From: a virus | Lineage: Duplodnaviria > Heunggongvirae > Uroviricota > Caudoviricetes | Strand: one strand, 5' to 3' | Length of the DNA stretch: 64,000 nt | IMG/VR virus record: IMGVR_UViG_3300032046_000003 | Coordinates: 1 to 64,000 of that record | Part shown: positions 8,534-26,985 of the stretch, piece by piece | Layout of the letters: every line of letters starts with the position of its first letter | Numbering within the stretch: position 1 is the stretch's first letter | Notes under the pieces: generated by a model | What the model saw: only the letters and a program-made list of their open reading frames with translations | What the model was told of the DNA's origin: nothing | Database searches by the model: none | Translations under genes and position numbers: made by a program

Positions 8534-8757
8534 TGGCATCAAGCGAGAATTTTGCAGTGGAATCACCCGAGGTAGATCCAGACGGCGGAAGGGTGGAAGC
8601 GGCAGACCTTAGGTTTGAAGTCAGGGAGTTCTCAAACGGCTTGAACGTATCAGGTAAAATAGTAATAGGCAGTCTGGACGATTTGATGATAGGCAACAAG
8701 CCTATAATCGAAGCTATAAAAGAAGCCCTATGTAAACCGTTAGACGAGAGCATATGA
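8533..8757 (+). CDS. small protein of coupled array (C-term DESI)
   Basis: Junction GACGAGAGCATATGA. Confidence 0.4.
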   Translation: MASSENFAVESPEVDPDGGRVEAADLRFEVREFSNGLNVSGKIVIGSLDDLMIGNKPIIEAIKEALCKPLDESI

Positions 8758-10129: not shown

Positions 10130-10403
10130 TATAGAATCGCTTAAGTGGACGGCCACGGCCTATCAGCCCAATTTGAACGTTTCGCCCGAATTGACAGAGA
10201 CAAACCTGCGAGACGCCTTGGACAACATGAGAGACCAGATGCAGAATCACACGATGACATATGGCGGAGTGCAATTGATAGTGAGTCCCGCCTTAGCAAA
10301 TGAAATAGCTTATTTAATGAATGATAGATCTGTTATTAAAGCAGAGTTCAATAAAAAGGTAGACAATATGACAAAGTATGGAATACAAGATGAGTCAATT
10401 TAG
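10116..10403 (+). CDS. small protein of coupled array (C-term DESI)
   Basis: ATG 10116 embedded in previous DES codons (track start 10110 is TTG). Confidence 0.4.
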   Translation: MSPSNIESLKWTATAYQPNLNVSPELTETNLRDALDNMRDQMQNHTMTYGGVQLIVSPALANEIAYLMNDRSVIKAEFNKKVDNMTKYGIQDESI

Positions 10404-10758
10404 AATAGATTATATTGGTCACAATATGGAAGTTGATTACCATCAAGGCGAACCTGAAACTGAATTAGAGTTTTATAGAGAGCAAGTTGAACTGCTAAGA
10501 CGGGAAAGAGATTCATTAAGTGAAACAGTCGCCAAATTAAGTGTGACTGGCAATGAGGATATTGAAACAGGTAGATTAAGACAAATTGTAAGGATTATGT
10601 ACAAATATCTGTTTCAATACCCCAATCTTATGGACGCGATAAGCAAAGAGATGGAAGAGAGGGAGCTCTTAGTGGACAACAAGTTCAACGTGGGCACGTT
10701 TGACATGTTGAACAAAATGTTCAAGTTAAACATTCTGGCAGAAGACGAAAGCATATGA
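10378..10758 (+). CDS. small protein of coupled array (C-term DESI)
   Basis: Alternative in-frame ATG at 10390 embedded in previous DES codons. Confidence 0.4.
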   Translation: MEYKMSQFRIDYIGHNMEVDYHQGEPETELEFYREQVELLRRERDSLSETVAKLSVTGNEDIETGRLRQIVRIMYKYLFQYPNLMDAISKEMEERELLVDNKFNVGTFDMLNKMFKLNILAEDESI

Positions 10759-11795: not shown

Positions 11796-11800
11796 TATAG

Positions 11801-11828
11801 GAGGGGGTGCCTAATCACTCCCTCTTTT
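11801..11828 (+). terminator. rho-independent terminator-like hairpin GAGGGGGTG..CACTCCCTC + TTTT
   Basis: GC stem with internal mismatch followed by T tract. Confidence 0.45.
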
Positions 11829-11846
11829 ACCTATTAGGAGGTAAAT

Positions 11847-12221
11847 ATGTTTTGTAAAATATGTGGAATATTTATAAATAAAAATAGTAATAGGCAATTA
11901 TATTGTAAAAAATGTGCTAGATTAAGTCATAATGGAAGTGTGAGAAAATATCGTTATGGTAAATGTGGTCAGGCTTATAATTTAACAGTAGAGCGATATG
12001 AAGAAGCTTTAAGAGCACAAAATAACGAATGTTTAATTTGTGGAATTAATTTTTCAATATTACCAAGCTGTGCTATATGCATAGATCATTGTCATAAAAC
12101 AAATGCAATACGTGGTATTTTATGTAAGAATTGTAATATAGGATTGGGGCTTTTTAAGGATAATATTATAAGTTTACAAAAAGCAGCTGAATATTTAAAA
12201 AAATATGTCCAAATTGGCTAA
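11847..12221 (+). CDS. recombination endonuclease VII (T4 gp49-like Holliday junction resolvase)
   Basis: CxxCG..DHCH..GILCKNCNIGLG signature of Endonuclease_7 family. Confidence 0.75.
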   Translation: MFCKICGIFINKNSNRQLYCKKCARLSHNGSVRKYRYGKCGQAYNLTVERYEEALRAQNNECLICGINFSILPSCAICIDHCHKTNAIRGILCKNCNIGLGLFKDNIISLQKAAEYLKKYVQIG

Positions 12222-12390
12222 GAATAATTGTTTCAAAAAACGATATGATTAGATGCTTTAATCGTATCATAGTACGATTACCCAATCACCTACACTTGTT
12301 GCTAACTGTACATAGTCAGGGAAATCAATATGTTTGAAAAATTCCAGTATTAAACAAGAGAGAGCAAAACAAAGGTGTTATATAAATACG

Positions 12391-12463
12391 CACTAAACTC
12401 CGCTCAGACTCTCTCGAATGCGGTACTGGCAGACTGATTAACTTTATAAAGCGGAGCTTAGTG
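12391..12463 (+). other. structured 5' leader upstream of hsp20 (candidate RNA thermometer / regulatory RNA)
   Basis: CACTAAACTCCGCT pairs with AGCGGAGCTTAGTG (1 mismatch) enclosing about 45 nt with repeated CAGACT. Confidence 0.3.
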
Positions 12464-12472
12464 TAAAAATAG

Positions 12473-12974
12473 CCGCCAGGAGAATACATAAGGAGGCTAA
12501 CATGATTAGAAGTTTAATCCCATTCGGGTCGTTTGACCGAATGGAGAATGAATTTGCAAAAATGGAAAGATTAATAAATGATGTATTCTCAAACGGAAGC
12601 ACGTTCTGGAGTTCAGATTACTCAAACTTCCCTAGAATAAATATAGTGGAAGATGCAAATAGATTCATTATAGAAGCTGGACTAGCAGGATATAATAAAG
12701 AAGATGTAAAGATTACACTGACAAGCAGAGGATTAAAGATTAGTGGAAAGCAGAAAGAGAGCTCAGAGATTAAGAGTGATAATGCAAAATATCACCTTAA
12801 AGAAATGACTTCAAGAGCTTTCGAGAAGCTAATTATAATCCCTGAAACAGTAGAAAAGAAGTTAATTAAATCTAAGCTGAAAGATGGTATCTTAATAATT
12901 GAGCTCCCTAAAAAAGATGCTCAAAATGATACTATAGAGCTTAAGATAGACTAAAGGTAAAAAACTCCTGGCGG
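12473..12974 (+). repeat. perfect 10-bp inverted repeat pair CCGCCAGGAG (12473-12482) / CTCCTGGCGG (12965-12974) flanking hsp20
   Basis: Exact reverse complements read directly; bracket whole Hsp20 ORF plus SD. Confidence 0.55.
12502..12954 (+). CDS. Hsp20/alpha-crystallin family small heat-shock protein
   Basis: ACD core ..VKITLTSRGLKISG..DGILIIELPKK; strong SD AAGGAGG. Confidence 0.8.
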   Translation: MIRSLIPFGSFDRMENEFAKMERLINDVFSNGSTFWSSDYSNFPRINIVEDANRFIIEAGLAGYNKEDVKITLTSRGLKISGKQKESSEIKSDNAKYHLKEMTSRAFEKLIIIPETVEKKLIKSKLKDGILIIELPKKDAQNDTIELKID

Positions 12975-13273
12975 TGACTCATTTTAAAGATACCTTACCT
13001 GAAAGATTGTTGCAAGAACTATTAAATAAATTAGGTATTAAATATAGAAAACATGAACCTATAATCGGGCAACCCGATTTATTCATTGAACCGAATATCT
13101 GTATTTTTGCTGACGGCGATTATTGGCACAATAGACCTGAAGCGATTGAGAGAGATAAGTTGGTTAATAAAGAGTTGATTAATAAAGGATATAAGGTTTT
13201 ACGTTTCTGGGAAAATGAAATAAGGTCGAATATAGATAATTGTGCTAATAGGATTAAGACTGAGGTGAAATAG
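12974..13273 (+). CDS. Vsr-like (DUF559-type) homing endonuclease, nuclease domain only
   Basis: FIEPNICIFADGDYWHNRPE...KVLRFWENEI matches Vsr DGxFWH core; GTG start. Confidence 0.7.
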   Translation: MTHFKDTLPERLLQELLNKLGIKYRKHEPIIGQPDLFIEPNICIFADGDYWHNRPEAIERDKLVNKELINKGYKVLRFWENEIRSNIDNCANRIKTEVK

Positions 13274-13527
13274 TGGCTAAATCGTTGTTTGTAGGTAATC
13301 TTCCGTATTCAGCGACCGAGAATGAGATTAAATCTGCGTTTGAACAACATGTCGAGGTGGTGGCTGTAAGGCTTATTACCGACAAGATGACTGGGAGAGC
13401 GAAAGGATTCGGTTTCGTTGAGGTTGCGGATGGAGATATGGAGAAGGCTGTGACGGCTATGAACGGCATGAAGATAGGGGACAGGGAGATCATTGTGAAT
13501 GAGGCTAGGCCTCGTGTGACCCGCTAA
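13273..13527 (+). CDS. RRM-type RNA-binding protein
   Basis: RNP-2 LFVGNL and RNP-1 KGFGFVEV; GTG start; locally higher GC. Confidence 0.8.
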   Translation: MAKSLFVGNLPYSATENEIKSAFEQHVEVVAVRLITDKMTGRAKGFGFVEVADGDMEKAVTAMNGMKIGDREIIVNEARPRVTR

Positions 13528-13540
13528 GGTAACTTAGAGT

Positions 13541-13568
13541 GAGGGGGTATTAATTTATCCCCTCTTTT
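13541..13568 (+). terminator. rho-independent terminator GAGGGGG-loop-CCCCTC-TTTT
   Basis: 6-bp GC stem, 11-nt loop, T tract. Confidence 0.55.
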
Positions 13569-13571
13569 AAA

Positions 13572-13856
13572 ATGTATAAGGAGAATATGTACGACCTAAA
13601 GAAAAAGATATTGAGGAAAAGACACGACCAAGTAGAGGACGTAATAACACATTACTACCTGATGGAGAGAATGTTCAGTACGGAGTTTACAGTCGAAAAG
13701 CATCCCAATAAGGACAAGCTGATAGAGAGGGCGAAGCTTCACAACAAGATGGGCGAAGGCTTGAAGCAGCACTCTACTTACAGGGTCATAGACAACCTGG
13801 AATACAATCAGATACAAAGAGAGAGAATGGATGAGTTCCTCAAGCAAAAAAAATAG
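13572..13856 (+). CDS. hypothetical protein
   Basis: ORF after SD AAGGAGAAT. Confidence 0.4.
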   Translation: MYKENMYDLKKKILRKRHDQVEDVITHYYLMERMFSTEFTVEKHPNKDKLIERAKLHNKMGEGLKQHSTYRVIDNLEYNQIQRERMDEFLKQKK

Positions 13857-14490: not shown

Positions 14491-15240
14491 ATGACATCAG
14501 GTAAATATATAAAAACTAAACGGCACATATTAAATCAAATTGCTTCTAGAAGAGAACATGGCTGGAATAAAAACCCTGAAGAGGTTAATAAGAAAATAAG
14601 TAAATCATTAAAAGGGATTAAATCTTCTAAGAAAAGTAAAACTTATGAAGAATTTTATGGTGTGGAAAGATCAAAAGAAATAATAAAAAAACAAAGTGAA
14701 GTTAAATTTATTCCTAGGGAAACTCGAGTTTGCGCGTGTGGATGTGAACAATCATTTAGATGTAAAATTAATTCTATAAAGAGATTTTCTCAAGGTCATT
14801 ATAATAAGGGTAAAACTTATGAACAACTATATGGCATTGAAAAAGCTAAAGAATTAAAATTAAATTATAAAAAGAATAGAGCAATTAGACAATTTCCTTA
14901 TAATGACACAAAGCCAGAATTAGCGTTGGACAAAATTTTACAACAATTAAAATTAAGATATGTTAAACAAAAGTATGAATTAGAGGGCACTCCCGATAGA
15001 TTTATAGAGCCTAATATCTGTATTTTTGTTGACGGTGATTACTGGCATGCTAATCCTAAGTTTTACAAGTCTAAAGATTTAATAGCTAATAATTATACTG
15101 CACGAGAAAAATGGAGCAAAGATAATAAAATAACTAAAGATTTAAAGTCTCAAGGTTTTAAGGTTTTAAGGTTTTGGGAGTATGACATTAAGAATGATAC
15201 AAATAAATGTATTGAGGAGATAAAAAGTTGTTTGACTTAA
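14491..15240 (+). CDS. homing endonuclease: NUMOD3-like repeats + CxCGC zinc motif + Vsr-like nuclease
   Basis: ISKSLKGIK / YGIEKAKEL repeats, RVCACGCEQSFRCKINS..FSQGH, C-term FIEPNICIFVDGDYWH..KVLRFWEYDI. Confidence 0.7.
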   Translation: MTSGKYIKTKRHILNQIASRREHGWNKNPEEVNKKISKSLKGIKSSKKSKTYEEFYGVERSKEIIKKQSEVKFIPRETRVCACGCEQSFRCKINSIKRFSQGHYNKGKTYEQLYGIEKAKELKLNYKKNRAIRQFPYNDTKPELALDKILQQLKLRYVKQKYELEGTPDRFIEPNICIFVDGDYWHANPKFYKSKDLIANNYTAREKWSKDNKITKDLKSQGFKVLRFWEYDIKNDTNKCIEEIKSCLT

Positions 15241-16142
15241 AAAGTATTGCATTAAATGTAGTTAAATGGATAGCAATCGTATTGTTAGCCTTGTTCTTGG
15301 GTTACCAAGGGTGGAGACTCGTGGTTACGTATTACAATCCCTTTACTTTTGTGCAAGAGATACAGAACGCATTGGCCAACAATCATCAGACTGAAGTCGC
15401 CTATGAGAAGCTAAAGGGCGAATTGTCCCAGGCCCAGACTGTTAATACGACCAACAAGAAGTTGTTGACCGAGAAAATCAATCAGATAAGCTTGCTGGTC
15501 AAAGACAAAGAAGCCTTAAAAGCGCAGTTGGACAAGATGAACGCCGAAGGGCAGATTATCAGCGAAGCCGAGACAGGACAAGGAAGCGTCACATTAGAGG
15601 CCTGGCTGGAGAGCAAGATGCCTTTCAAGTTCCATGATGGATGGCAGGACATAGACGTAATAGGACCCAACAAATTACATTATAAATGGCACTTTGATAT
15701 TCATGATATATCGATACAGACCAAGGACGAGAACAACAACGTAACTACCATTTATACTGTGTATCTGCAGAATCGAGACGGAGCCAAACTGTACTTGGAC
15801 TATAAGAAGAGTTTTGTCGATCAAAAACCCGAGTATCATCTGTTGAACTGGTGGGATCCGAAGATAAGAATGACTAATTTTGCTGGAATTAAAGGAGTGG
15901 AGTTCGGAGGAGCTTTATCTTTATGTTCAGTATCACTTTCACAAAAACAAAAAGATTATCTATTAGTTTTTCCAGAAATATCAATGTCATCTAATTTCAG
16001 AGAAGGCATGGATATAGGAATTGGCGGCGGAATAAATATTGCGCACTGGCTCCCACTTTTTGAAAATCTTTGGGTAGACGGTAGACTAGTTTTAACAGAT
16101 TATGATAAAACTTCAGTAATTGGCATAGGAGTTACATTATAA
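15228..16142 (+). CDS. membrane-anchored protein with coiled coil
   Basis: N-terminal TM segment then coiled-coil; function unknown. Confidence 0.45.
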   Translation: MFDLKSIALNVVKWIAIVLLALFLGYQGWRLVVTYYNPFTFVQEIQNALANNHQTEVAYEKLKGELSQAQTVNTTNKKLLTEKINQISLLVKDKEALKAQLDKMNAEGQIISEAETGQGSVTLEAWLESKMPFKFHDGWQDIDVIGPNKLHYKWHFDIHDISIQTKDENNNVTTIYTVYLQNRDGAKLYLDYKKSFVDQKPEYHLLNWWDPKIRMTNFAGIKGVEFGGALSLCSVSLSQKQKDYLLVFPEISMSSNFREGMDIGIGGGINIAHWLPLFENLWVDGRLVLTDYDKTSVIGIGVTL

Positions 16143-25821: not shown

Positions 25822-25902
25822 GCCGGTGTAGCTCAAAATAAAAGGCAGAGCAACGGTTTTGTAAACCGAAGGTTGGGGGTTCAAGTCCTCTCGCCGGCCC
25901 CA
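25822..25902 (+). tRNA. tRNA-Thr(TGT) with encoded CCA
   Basis: Acceptor GCCGGTG/CGCCGGC, anticodon loop TTTGTAA, T loop TTCAAGT, long D loop; CCA at 25900-25902. Confidence 0.6.
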
Positions 25903-26836: not shown

Positions 26837-26908
26837 TTAAAGCGTTGTTTTAATCTAGTTGATAGGGTAAAAAATTAAAGCTTATATAAGAGTATCAACA
26901 CAATACAT

Positions 26909-26980
26909 TCTCGAGTAGTTCAGCGGGAGAATAACTCCCCTACAAGGAGAAGGTCGCTGGTTCGATCCCAGCCTCGAGAA
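26909..26980 (+). tRNA. tRNA, anticodon TAC (Val?) with unusual C33
   Basis: Acceptor TCTCGAG/CTCGAGA, T loop TTCGATC; anticodon loop read as CCTACAA. Confidence 0.5.
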
Positions 26981-26985
26981 TTTAT

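Follow-up and report, generated by a model that had tools for sequence, protein, structure and literature searches.

The small heat-shock gene hsp20 of an uncultured large phage is bracketed by a perfect 10-bp inverted repeat that, judged by sequence comparison, reflects in the DNA a structure of the hsp20 mRNA. The gene lies in a 64,000-nt stretch (positions 1 to 64,000 of IMG/VR record IMGVR_UViG_3300032046_000003; hereafter the window) that forms part of the phage; identical DNA also occurs on two contigs, one of 178 kb from ENA and one of 31 kb from Logan, and samples ERZ27247683 and SRR9617926 hold the phage. The repeat, to which an initial annotation of the window had drawn attention, pairs the 5′ untranslated region (5′UTR) of hsp20 with its 3′UTR (helix A), and a second helix, missing from that annotation, pairs the 5′UTR with codons 27–30 (helix B). 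We consider it very probable that this RNA structure is real and selected.

Pairing between the two ends of the hsp20 message

The arms of helix A enclose the Shine–Dalgarno sequence (SD) and the open reading frame (ORF) of Hsp20:

12473–12482, + strand: 5′ arm of helix A, CCGCCAGGAG, in the hsp20 5′UTR, ending 19 nt before the AUG
12490–12496, + strand: SD, AAGGAGG, 5 nt 5′ of the AUG
12502–12954, + strand: hsp20 coding sequence, 150 amino acids (PF00011, E = 2.8e-17)
12965–12974, + strand: 3′ arm of helix A, CTCCTGGCGG, starting 10 nt past the hsp20 stop codon

The two arms are exact reverse complements with 482 nt between them, and the helix can be extended by an optional G12472·U12975 wobble pair. 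The inverted repeat described in the initial annotation is thus confirmed; it stands far above chance and is kept in ten other lineages. A search of the window for further copies of the 10-mer, allowing up to one mismatch, returned just the two arms. When flank-to-flank duplex energies were computed for the 201 ORFs of at least 60 amino acids on both strands of the window, hsp20 ranked first at −24.7 kcal/mol (mean −10.5, standard deviation 4.0; runner-up −22.2 kcal/mol). This rank is suggestive and, taken alone, not decisive.

The deciding evidence came from relatives. A profile search identified a tight clade of 12 Hsp20 protein clusters (122–304 bits), below which scores dropped to 81 bits. 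Clade DNA was obtained for L003, L004, L005, L006, L007, L008 (the same lineage as L096), L009–L011 and L012 (on one contig with L095); L093 and L094 were added by a metagenome scan, and an outgroup, L017 (~33% identity), by a scan of IMG/VR. Every one of the 11 lineages with DNA (window, L003–L009, L012, L093, L096 and the outgroup L017) has a helix of 9–19 bp at the same two positions, the relatives among them having protein identities of 33–65%. The arms, each given 5′ arm first, are as follows:

Window: CCGCCAGGAG with CUCCUGGCGG; 10 bp
L004 and L005: CCGCCGAGAG with CUCUCGGCGG; 10 bp
L003: CCACCGAGAG with CUCUCGGUGA; 9 bp, plus CUUGC/GCAAG beyond a one-base bulge
L006: CCACCGAGAGA with UCUCUCGGUGG; 11 bp
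L007: UAACCGCCAAGAG with CUCUUGGCGGUUA; 13 bp
L008/L096: GACCGUCAGAGA with UCUCUGGCGGUC; 12 bp, one U·G
L009: CCACCAGGAG with CUCCUGGUGG; 10 bp
L012: GUAGGUUGCUAGGAG with CUCCUAGCAACCUAC; 15 bp
L093: CCACAUCGCUAGGGAA with UUCCCUAGUGGUGUGG; 16 bp, two G·U
L017: AUAUGGGUAAUGGGUGUUA with UGGCACCCAUUACCCAUAU; 19 bp, two U·G

Helix A is G+C-rich, and its geometry is similar throughout: the 5′ arm ends 13–28 nt (usually 19–23) before the AUG, and the 3′ arm starts 6–14 nt past the stop codon. Searches of GenBank phages and IMG/VR found no hsp20 relatives above about 33% identity, and among 47 more distant phage hsp20 loci a convincing bracket helix was present in L017 only; an apparent bracket signal in L073 proved to be a local terminator. 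Scanning IMG/VR and GTDB genomes for the pattern GAGAATACAT-N(1–4)-AGGAGG gave chance matches only.

Although the arm sequences differ between lineages, their pairing is maintained. Aligning nine sequences with MAFFT gave 88% paired cells over 13 pairs, with both sides changed in 10 of the 13; none of 500 shuffles reached as high a value, and slid controls gave 38–48%. A gap-free alignment of the 11 lineages, which was anchored on helix A and hence biased towards structure, gave 94.7% paired cells and change on both sides in 12 of 12 pairs (0/500 shuffles as high; slid controls 39–47%). Each of the nine clade lineages tested, and L017 too, has helix A in its minimum free energy (MFE) fold, and partition-function calculations predicted a probability of ~1 between 15 and 55 °C, L003 being the exception at 0.75–0.85.

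Chance complementarity in an AT-rich genome could be invoked, given that three perfect 10-nt inverted pairs occur within the 1.8-kb stretch around hsp20 and that the second-best ORF flank duplex comes to within a few kcal/mol of hsp20. However, because 11 lineages pair the same positions with differing sequences, a result reproduced in 0 of 500 shuffles, we regard chance as ruled out for all practical purposes.

The non-Watson–Crick pairs indicate which molecule is under selection. Nearly all are G·U on the sense strand (one in L096, two in L093 and two in L017, in addition to flanking pairs), and the sole C–A pair is found in L003. Because G·U pairs on the sense strand would be A–C mismatches on the opposite strand and in duplex DNA, the selected object appears to be the + strand RNA. 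Covariation across 11 lineages, sense-strand G·U pairs and the MFE folds together lend strong support to one of the options raised in the initial annotation, a 5′UTR–3′UTR pairing.

The message between the arms is itself highly structured. For hsp20 RNA the MFE z-score reaches −6.5 when both arms are included and −4.6 when only the interior (12482–12964) is folded, compared with −0.12 ± 0.99 (minimum −1.47) for 15 control windows of 502 nt across the phage; the coding sequences of ten relatives all have negative z-scores (−0.9 to −5.0). Candidate long-range helices inside the ORF were also noted, for example 12546–12558 with 12654–12666, with pairs that are 78–91% conserved.

A second helix and the ribosome-binding site

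Helix B joins the 5′UTR, immediately downstream of the helix A arm, to the coding sequence:

12480–12489, + strand: 5′ strand of helix B, GAGAAUACAU, sharing GAG with helix A and ending 1 nt before the SD
12581–12590, + strand: 3′ strand of helix B, AUGUAUUCUC, within the ORF at codons 27–30 (D-V-F-S)

This helix is AU-rich, measures 8–11 bp and overlaps the helix A arm by 3–4 nt. Its pairing is kept in 10 of 10 clade lineages (L093 judged by inspection), and five of these (L006, L008/L096, L009, L012 and L093) show compensatory changes. By tool count, 72 of 72 cells were paired and three pairs had changed on both sides, with 1 of 500 shuffles scoring as high. F29 and S30 are invariant in the Hsp20 clade, and the 5′UTR tracks synonymous and conservative codon changes from GUA to GUG, GUU, AUA or UUA:

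L006: UTR UAC to CAC with codon GUA to GUG
L008/L096: UTR AAUAC to AAAAC with codon GUA to GUU
L009: UTR C to U with codon GUA to AUA
L012 and L093: UTR C to A with codon GUA to UUA
L093: UTR G to A opposite UUU

Because it pairs UTR with coding sequence, helix B has no rationale at the DNA level. On the 5′UTR strand helices A and B are contiguous over ~17 nt (21–24 in L012 and L093; 19 in L017), and the two helices and the remaining ORF would meet in a three-way junction. Helix B closes a 91-nt loop that holds the unpaired SD and AUG.

In nascent RNA truncated just past codon 34, helix B is part of the MFE fold in 10 of 10 lineages, and in every lineage the A-arm region adds to it by pairing with codons ~31–35. 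This pairing is predicted to be stronger within a lineage than between lineages (−6.6 versus −5.3 kcal/mol; permutation p = 0.0045), and we treat it as a tentative alternative partner of the A arm.

When the consensus fold was computed from a codon-aware alignment, both the SD and the AUG came out unpaired. The predicted probability that the SD is unpaired ranges from 0.2 to 0.85 with no consistent temperature trend, and predicted SD accessibility shows no consistent difference between nascent and full-length RNA. Helix A leaves the SD outside, which sets it apart from the direct pairing of a 3′UTR with the SD known from icaR. Neither the SD nor the AUG lies within a hairpin, as they would in an RNA thermometer. 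Rfam searches of 12150–13050 found no thermometer family at gathering score and only chance-level matches at E up to 10; over the whole window, gathering-score matches comprised tRNAs and chance-level matches only. The initial annotation had also suggested RNA-thermometer control. Because the ribosome-binding site is free and helix A is predicted to be stable to 55 °C, a thermometer of the classical form is unsupported, and the SD accessibility that shows no consistent response to temperature speaks against it as well. Predicted melting between 15 and 37 °C is confined to helix B in three of ten lineages (L003, L004 and L009, where its probability falls from 0.8–1.0 at 15 °C to 0.07–0.5 at 37 °C); according to these models, only the AU-rich helix B could be heat-labile.

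The two pairing states of the A arm invite a reading as a regulatory switch, in which the 5′UTR would first sit in a hairpin (helix B, joined by weak pairing of the A arm to codons 31–35) and in its other state form helix A, so that hsp20 translation would rise with heat or on completed transcripts. Helix B would be melted by heat or by ribosomes, resembling a thermometer or hok-type refolding. Consistent with this, helix B is AU-rich, abuts the SD and shares nucleotides with helix A; it is predicted to weaken with warming in the three lineages just named; the nascent A-arm pairing recurs in the MFE fold of every lineage; and host-type small heat-shock genes of cyanobacteria are reported to be under RNA-thermometer control (PMC4152365). 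However, the consensus fold hides neither the SD nor the AUG, SD accessibility responds consistently neither to temperature nor to the nascent or full-length state, the predicted probability of helix B stays close to 0 whatever the temperature in 6 of 10 lineages, and the alternative A-arm pairing is weak (3–7 bp) and marginally significant. We find a switch possible but doubtful.

The same folding order could instead serve as a transcript-completion device, with the 5′UTR held by codons 27–35 and handed to the 3′UTR at full transcription to give a closed loop. Because the stop codon would then lie a few nanometres from its own SD, terminating ribosomes could re-initiate in cis. This reading seems unlikely to us; if true, it would provide a bacterial counterpart of the eukaryotic closed-loop mRNA, made by RNA pairing alone and conserved across a phage clade.

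Leader, gene neighbourhood and the mobile-cassette question

Genes around hsp20 are all on the + strand, and the surroundings of the element contain the following features:

11801–11827, + strand: terminator-like hairpin GAGGGGGT-N-CCCTCTTT, candidate upstream boundary of the hsp20 transcription unit
11847–12221, + strand: HNH/endonuclease VII gene, followed by a 280-nt spacer and then hsp20
12391–12404 and 12450–12463, + strand: leader hairpin stem, CACTAAACTCCGCT with AGCGGAGCTTAGTG, 13/14 match, 45-nt loop
12974–13273, + strand: ORF with a Vsr/DUF559 nuclease domain, 99 amino acids, GTG start
13273–13527, + strand: RRM protein gene
13541–13567, + strand: second copy of the terminator-like hairpin, 3′ of the RRM gene, candidate downstream boundary

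The alpha-crystallin domain (PF00011) of the phage Hsp20 spans residues 48–144. The first base of the GTG start of the Vsr-like ORF is the last base of the helix A 3′ arm, and this ORF is a domain-only paralogue (40% identity) of a 249-amino-acid Vsr/DUF559 gene at 14491–15240, the two being 1.2 kb apart. Compared with GenBank phages, 11800–13600 gave a single weak DNA match, to a Leptolyngbya phage. The hairpin GAGGGGGT-N11/12-CCCTCTTT has only two copies in the 64 kb (0.01 expected by chance), and these enclose exactly the block of HNH gene, leader, hsp20, Vsr ORF and RRM gene; they may mark the limits of a transcription unit or be scars left by recombination of a module.

This setting had suggested, in the initial annotation, a mini-cassette with terminal inverted repeats that mobilised hsp20, a Vsr-like homing endonuclease gene being its immediate neighbour. 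As a DNA-level element, the arms would be the terminal inverted repeats of a mobile hsp20 cassette, possibly moved by the HNH or Vsr-like endonucleases; the 10-bp repeat is indeed perfect, genes for homing-type nucleases stand on both sides in this phage, and the hsp20 neighbourhood differs among relatives. However, no HNH or Vsr gene was found beside hsp20 in the relatives with readable flanks, where its neighbours are an RRM gene, a tRNA-Met, a peptidase gene and a RecA-like gene. Neighbouring genes vary between lineages and the arm bracket persists. In L004 hsp20 is followed by a homologue of the window ORF at 15228–16142 (E = 4e-9), and in the window ~2.3 kb, including both Vsr-domain genes, lies between hsp20 and this ORF. 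Because the readable relatives lack HNH and Vsr genes beside hsp20 and the L004 homologue follows hsp20, the nuclease genes appear to be later insertions that spared the bracket.

The arms also lack other marks of a mobile element. No target-site duplication was found (the flanks are ..ATAG / TGAC.. in the window and different in every lineage), there are no outer direct repeats (TAG...TGA in the window), and the 64 kb contain a single arm pair. The mismatches are G·U on the sense strand, that is, A–C on the other strand, and helix B, which runs from UTR to coding sequence, is left unexplained by DNA repeats. A link to Vsr and Dcm through CCWGG, the core of the window arms, fails as well: the window has 68 such sites, and the arms of 7 of 10 relatives have none. 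Because nuclease genes are absent beside hsp20 in readable relatives, with no target-site duplication and no further copies, we reject the cassette and, with it, joint movement of hsp20 and the Vsr-like gene; a function of the arms at the DNA level is very improbable.

An RRM-type gene lies 0.3–1.7 kb from hsp20 in four lineages (window 13273–13527, L003 1389–1631, L005 1595–1837 and L012 5174–5419), a linkage that may reflect a functional tie or merely a common accessory region. It bears on the idea of a protein operator, in which the A/B junction beside the SD would bind Hsp20 itself or the nearby-encoded phage RRM protein and thereby set hsp20 translation. There is a precedent in Escherichia coli, where IbpA binds its own 5′UTR and represses itself via R93, R97 and K98 (PMC10474464), and by eye S-R-A-F-E-K in the phage Hsp20 can be matched to E-R-N-F-E-R-K in IbpA. 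However, the arginine in question is common to most small heat-shock proteins and is K in one clade member, the RRM linkage may come only from the common accessory region just mentioned, and the covariation reflects selection on pairing, not on a sequence-specific protein site. We regard an operator as improbable.

The structured leader reported in the initial annotation stands in part: the imperfect 14-bp stem exists as described, but it has no counterpart in the three closest relatives (L003–L005) and probably lies outside the conserved element. Sequence conservation among these relatives begins ~6 nt 5′ of the helix A arm. The leader fold has a z-score of −2.0, with 9 of 200 shuffles folding equally well, and stems of its quality number six (four distinct) in the window against a shuffle mean of 1.3. 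BLAST of the leader stem against every fetched locus gave no match. In L004 (123–197) and L005 (2644–2718) a tRNA-Met (CAT) stands just 5′ of hsp20, where the window has the leader hairpin, and some other relatives have, by eye, unrelated small hairpins at this position; no tRNA or tmRNA was found in the leader itself. The leader hairpin is real and confined to this phage.

No repeat of the leader was found in the window or the fetched loci, bar one 32-nt match: leader positions 12291–12322 are 87.5% identical to L004 933–964, in the gene after hsp20 (E = 4e-5). This match, for which a protein-level check by tblastn was not significant, may be a rearrangement remnant. A T4-type late promoter sequence, TATAAATA, at 12381–12388 was considered and set aside, with 16 sites in the window against 11.8 expected and no common context. 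In L096, a motif AAAATATATAAATT that may be a phage promoter motif occurs upstream (~1395–1420) and downstream (~1975–1990) of the hsp20 unit, and a hairpin with a T-run lies between its upstream copy and the 5′ arm.

Elsewhere, the window contains portal, terminase and glycosyltransferase genes and 18 tRNA genes by Rfam or 17 by ARAGORN; Rfam has an extra tRNA match at 25822–25899, and ARAGORN places at 26908–26981 a tRNA-Cys whose anticodon, ACA, is unusual. Between 8400 and 11795, nine consecutive small + strand ORFs (ending at 8757, 9143, 9403, 10129, 10403, 10758, 11018, 11197 and 11795) share the C-terminal motif [ILV]-x-[D/E/Q]-E-S-[I/L/V]-stop, for example LGIADESI, YGIQDESI and GILDESV. 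Because codons differ between the copies, the motif appears to be kept at the protein level, and it may be a docking or recognition tail of a small phage protein family. One of these ORFs (10378–10758) contains a local inverted repeat, GGATATTGAAACAGGTA ... TATCTGTTTCAATACCC, at 10557–10640, with ~17 nt per arm and one mismatch.

A possible clamp on the message and its known counterparts

Of the functions considered, we favour a protective clamp on the ends of the hsp20 message, to which sequence comparison and folding models lead us to give an even chance. Helix B would form first, once codon 30 has been transcribed, and helix A would then close the whole message as the 3′UTR emerges. The clamp would bury both ends of the hsp20 unit in duplex, blocking 5′-end-dependent attack as well as 3′ exonucleases; it would shield the AU-rich leader from endonucleases, and it would let the unit fold independently of its flanks within long phage transcripts. 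Going by typical ribosome footprint sizes, the arms should sit level with, or slightly outside, the edges of the initiating and the terminating ribosome, so helix A could persist during translation; helix B would be opened by each passing ribosome. The outcome would be a long-lived, translation-competent hsp20 mRNA.

Several observations weigh against a clamp. In full-length RNA helix B is predicted to be marginal, with a cost of 0–8 kcal/mol for forcing it, and at 37 °C six of ten lineages give it a probability close to 0. Scans for sigma-70-type promoters and for terminators stayed at background, TATAAATA is not enriched, and neither a promoter nor a terminator could be placed. U-tracts past the 3′ arm are inconsistent among lineages: a T-run follows the arm in L005, L009, L017 and partly L096, and there is none in the window, L003, L004, L006, L007, L012 or L093. 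On this ground helix A was also rejected as a long-range terminator. Finally, a clamp gives no reason why hsp20 in particular should carry it.

The two helices might alternatively be a processing stem. The 5′ and 3′ flanks of 16S and 23S rRNA pair over hundreds of nucleotides into stems that are cleaved by RNase III, and the pairing of gene flanks at hsp20 has the same geometry. Helix A stacked on helix B could thus be an RNase III-type site that excises the hsp20 unit from a polycistronic transcript, or a decay mark as in icaR; together they offer ~17 contiguous paired bases (21–24 in L012 and L093, 19 in L017). Typical RNase III substrates span about two helical turns, however, and helix A falls below this in most lineages, where it has 10–13 bp (15–16 in L012 and L093, 19 in L017); a cut within it would leave stubs too short for pairing. 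The rRNA stems are longer than the 9–19 bp of the hsp20 helix, which moreover surrounds a protein-coding unit. Although the 5′UTR–3′UTR pairing of icaR does create an RNase III substrate (PMC3868564), we judge processing distinctly unlikely here.

Returning to the clamp, a literature search found nothing on RNA structure around phage hsp20 genes, and the element is best compared with end-to-end pairing in other messages. In hok of the hok/sok system of plasmid R1, the full-length mRNA folds back so that its two ends pair (fbi–tac), the 5′ end has an alternative internal partner and the order of folding matters; hok encodes a toxin and is paired with an antisense RNA, and trimming of the 3′ end triggers its activation. 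The phage element resembles hok in its end-to-end pairing and in an alternative 5′ partner, which in the phage is tentative (p = 0.0045). It differs in that no toxin or antisense RNA is present at the hsp20 element.

The closest likeness to the proposed clamp is offered by Bacillus subtilis hbs, in which, according to the summary of that work, a 14-bp pairing of the 5′UTR with the 3′UTR modulates RNase Y cleavage in the leader (Braun, Durand and Condon 2017, PMC5737220). As summarised there, hbs shares with hsp20 a short mRNA, a strong SD and a UTR–UTR helix of similar length, and its pairing shields the leader against endonuclease cuts and couples stability to the ribosomes that initiate (PMC5737220); by analogy, the hsp20 clamp would have the same role. 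Unlike the hsp20 helices, which are known from covariation in uncultured phages, hbs is a cellular gene that the summary describes from mutational study in one species, and a helix between the UTR and codons 27–30 is not among the hbs features summarised (PMC5737220).

In Staphylococcus aureus icaR, the SD itself is the target of the 3′UTR, whose pairing prevents initiation and gives rise to a site for RNase III (Ruiz de los Mozos et al. 2013, PMC3868564). Phage hsp20 is unlike icaR in that helix A lies upstream of the SD and leaves it free (PMC3868564). The element resembles the ROSE, fourU and cyanobacterial hsp17 thermometers of small heat-shock genes (PMC4152365) in that an hsp20-family gene has a structured leader and an AU-rich helix adjoins the SD. 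It departs from these thermometers in that the SD and AUG lie outside a hairpin, its main helix spans a long range as a perfect, G+C-rich duplex, and there is no Rfam match.

Few cases of UTR–UTR pairing in bacterial-type mRNAs are known to have been dissected experimentally, each in a single species, and independent compensatory changes in eleven phage lineages are unusually strong comparative support for a structure that spans ~500 nt of a protein-coding message. If the element works as its sequence suggests, phage auxiliary genes such as hsp20 can bear their own post-transcriptional control, one that outlasts gene shuffling and the insertion of homing endonucleases. At ~500 nt it is a compact system in which effects of end pairing on mRNA lifetime, ribosome recycling and the heat response are directly testable. 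The element shares end-to-end pairing with hbs, icaR and hok and is distinguished from them by its free SD, its additional UTR–codon helix and its phylogenetic definition.

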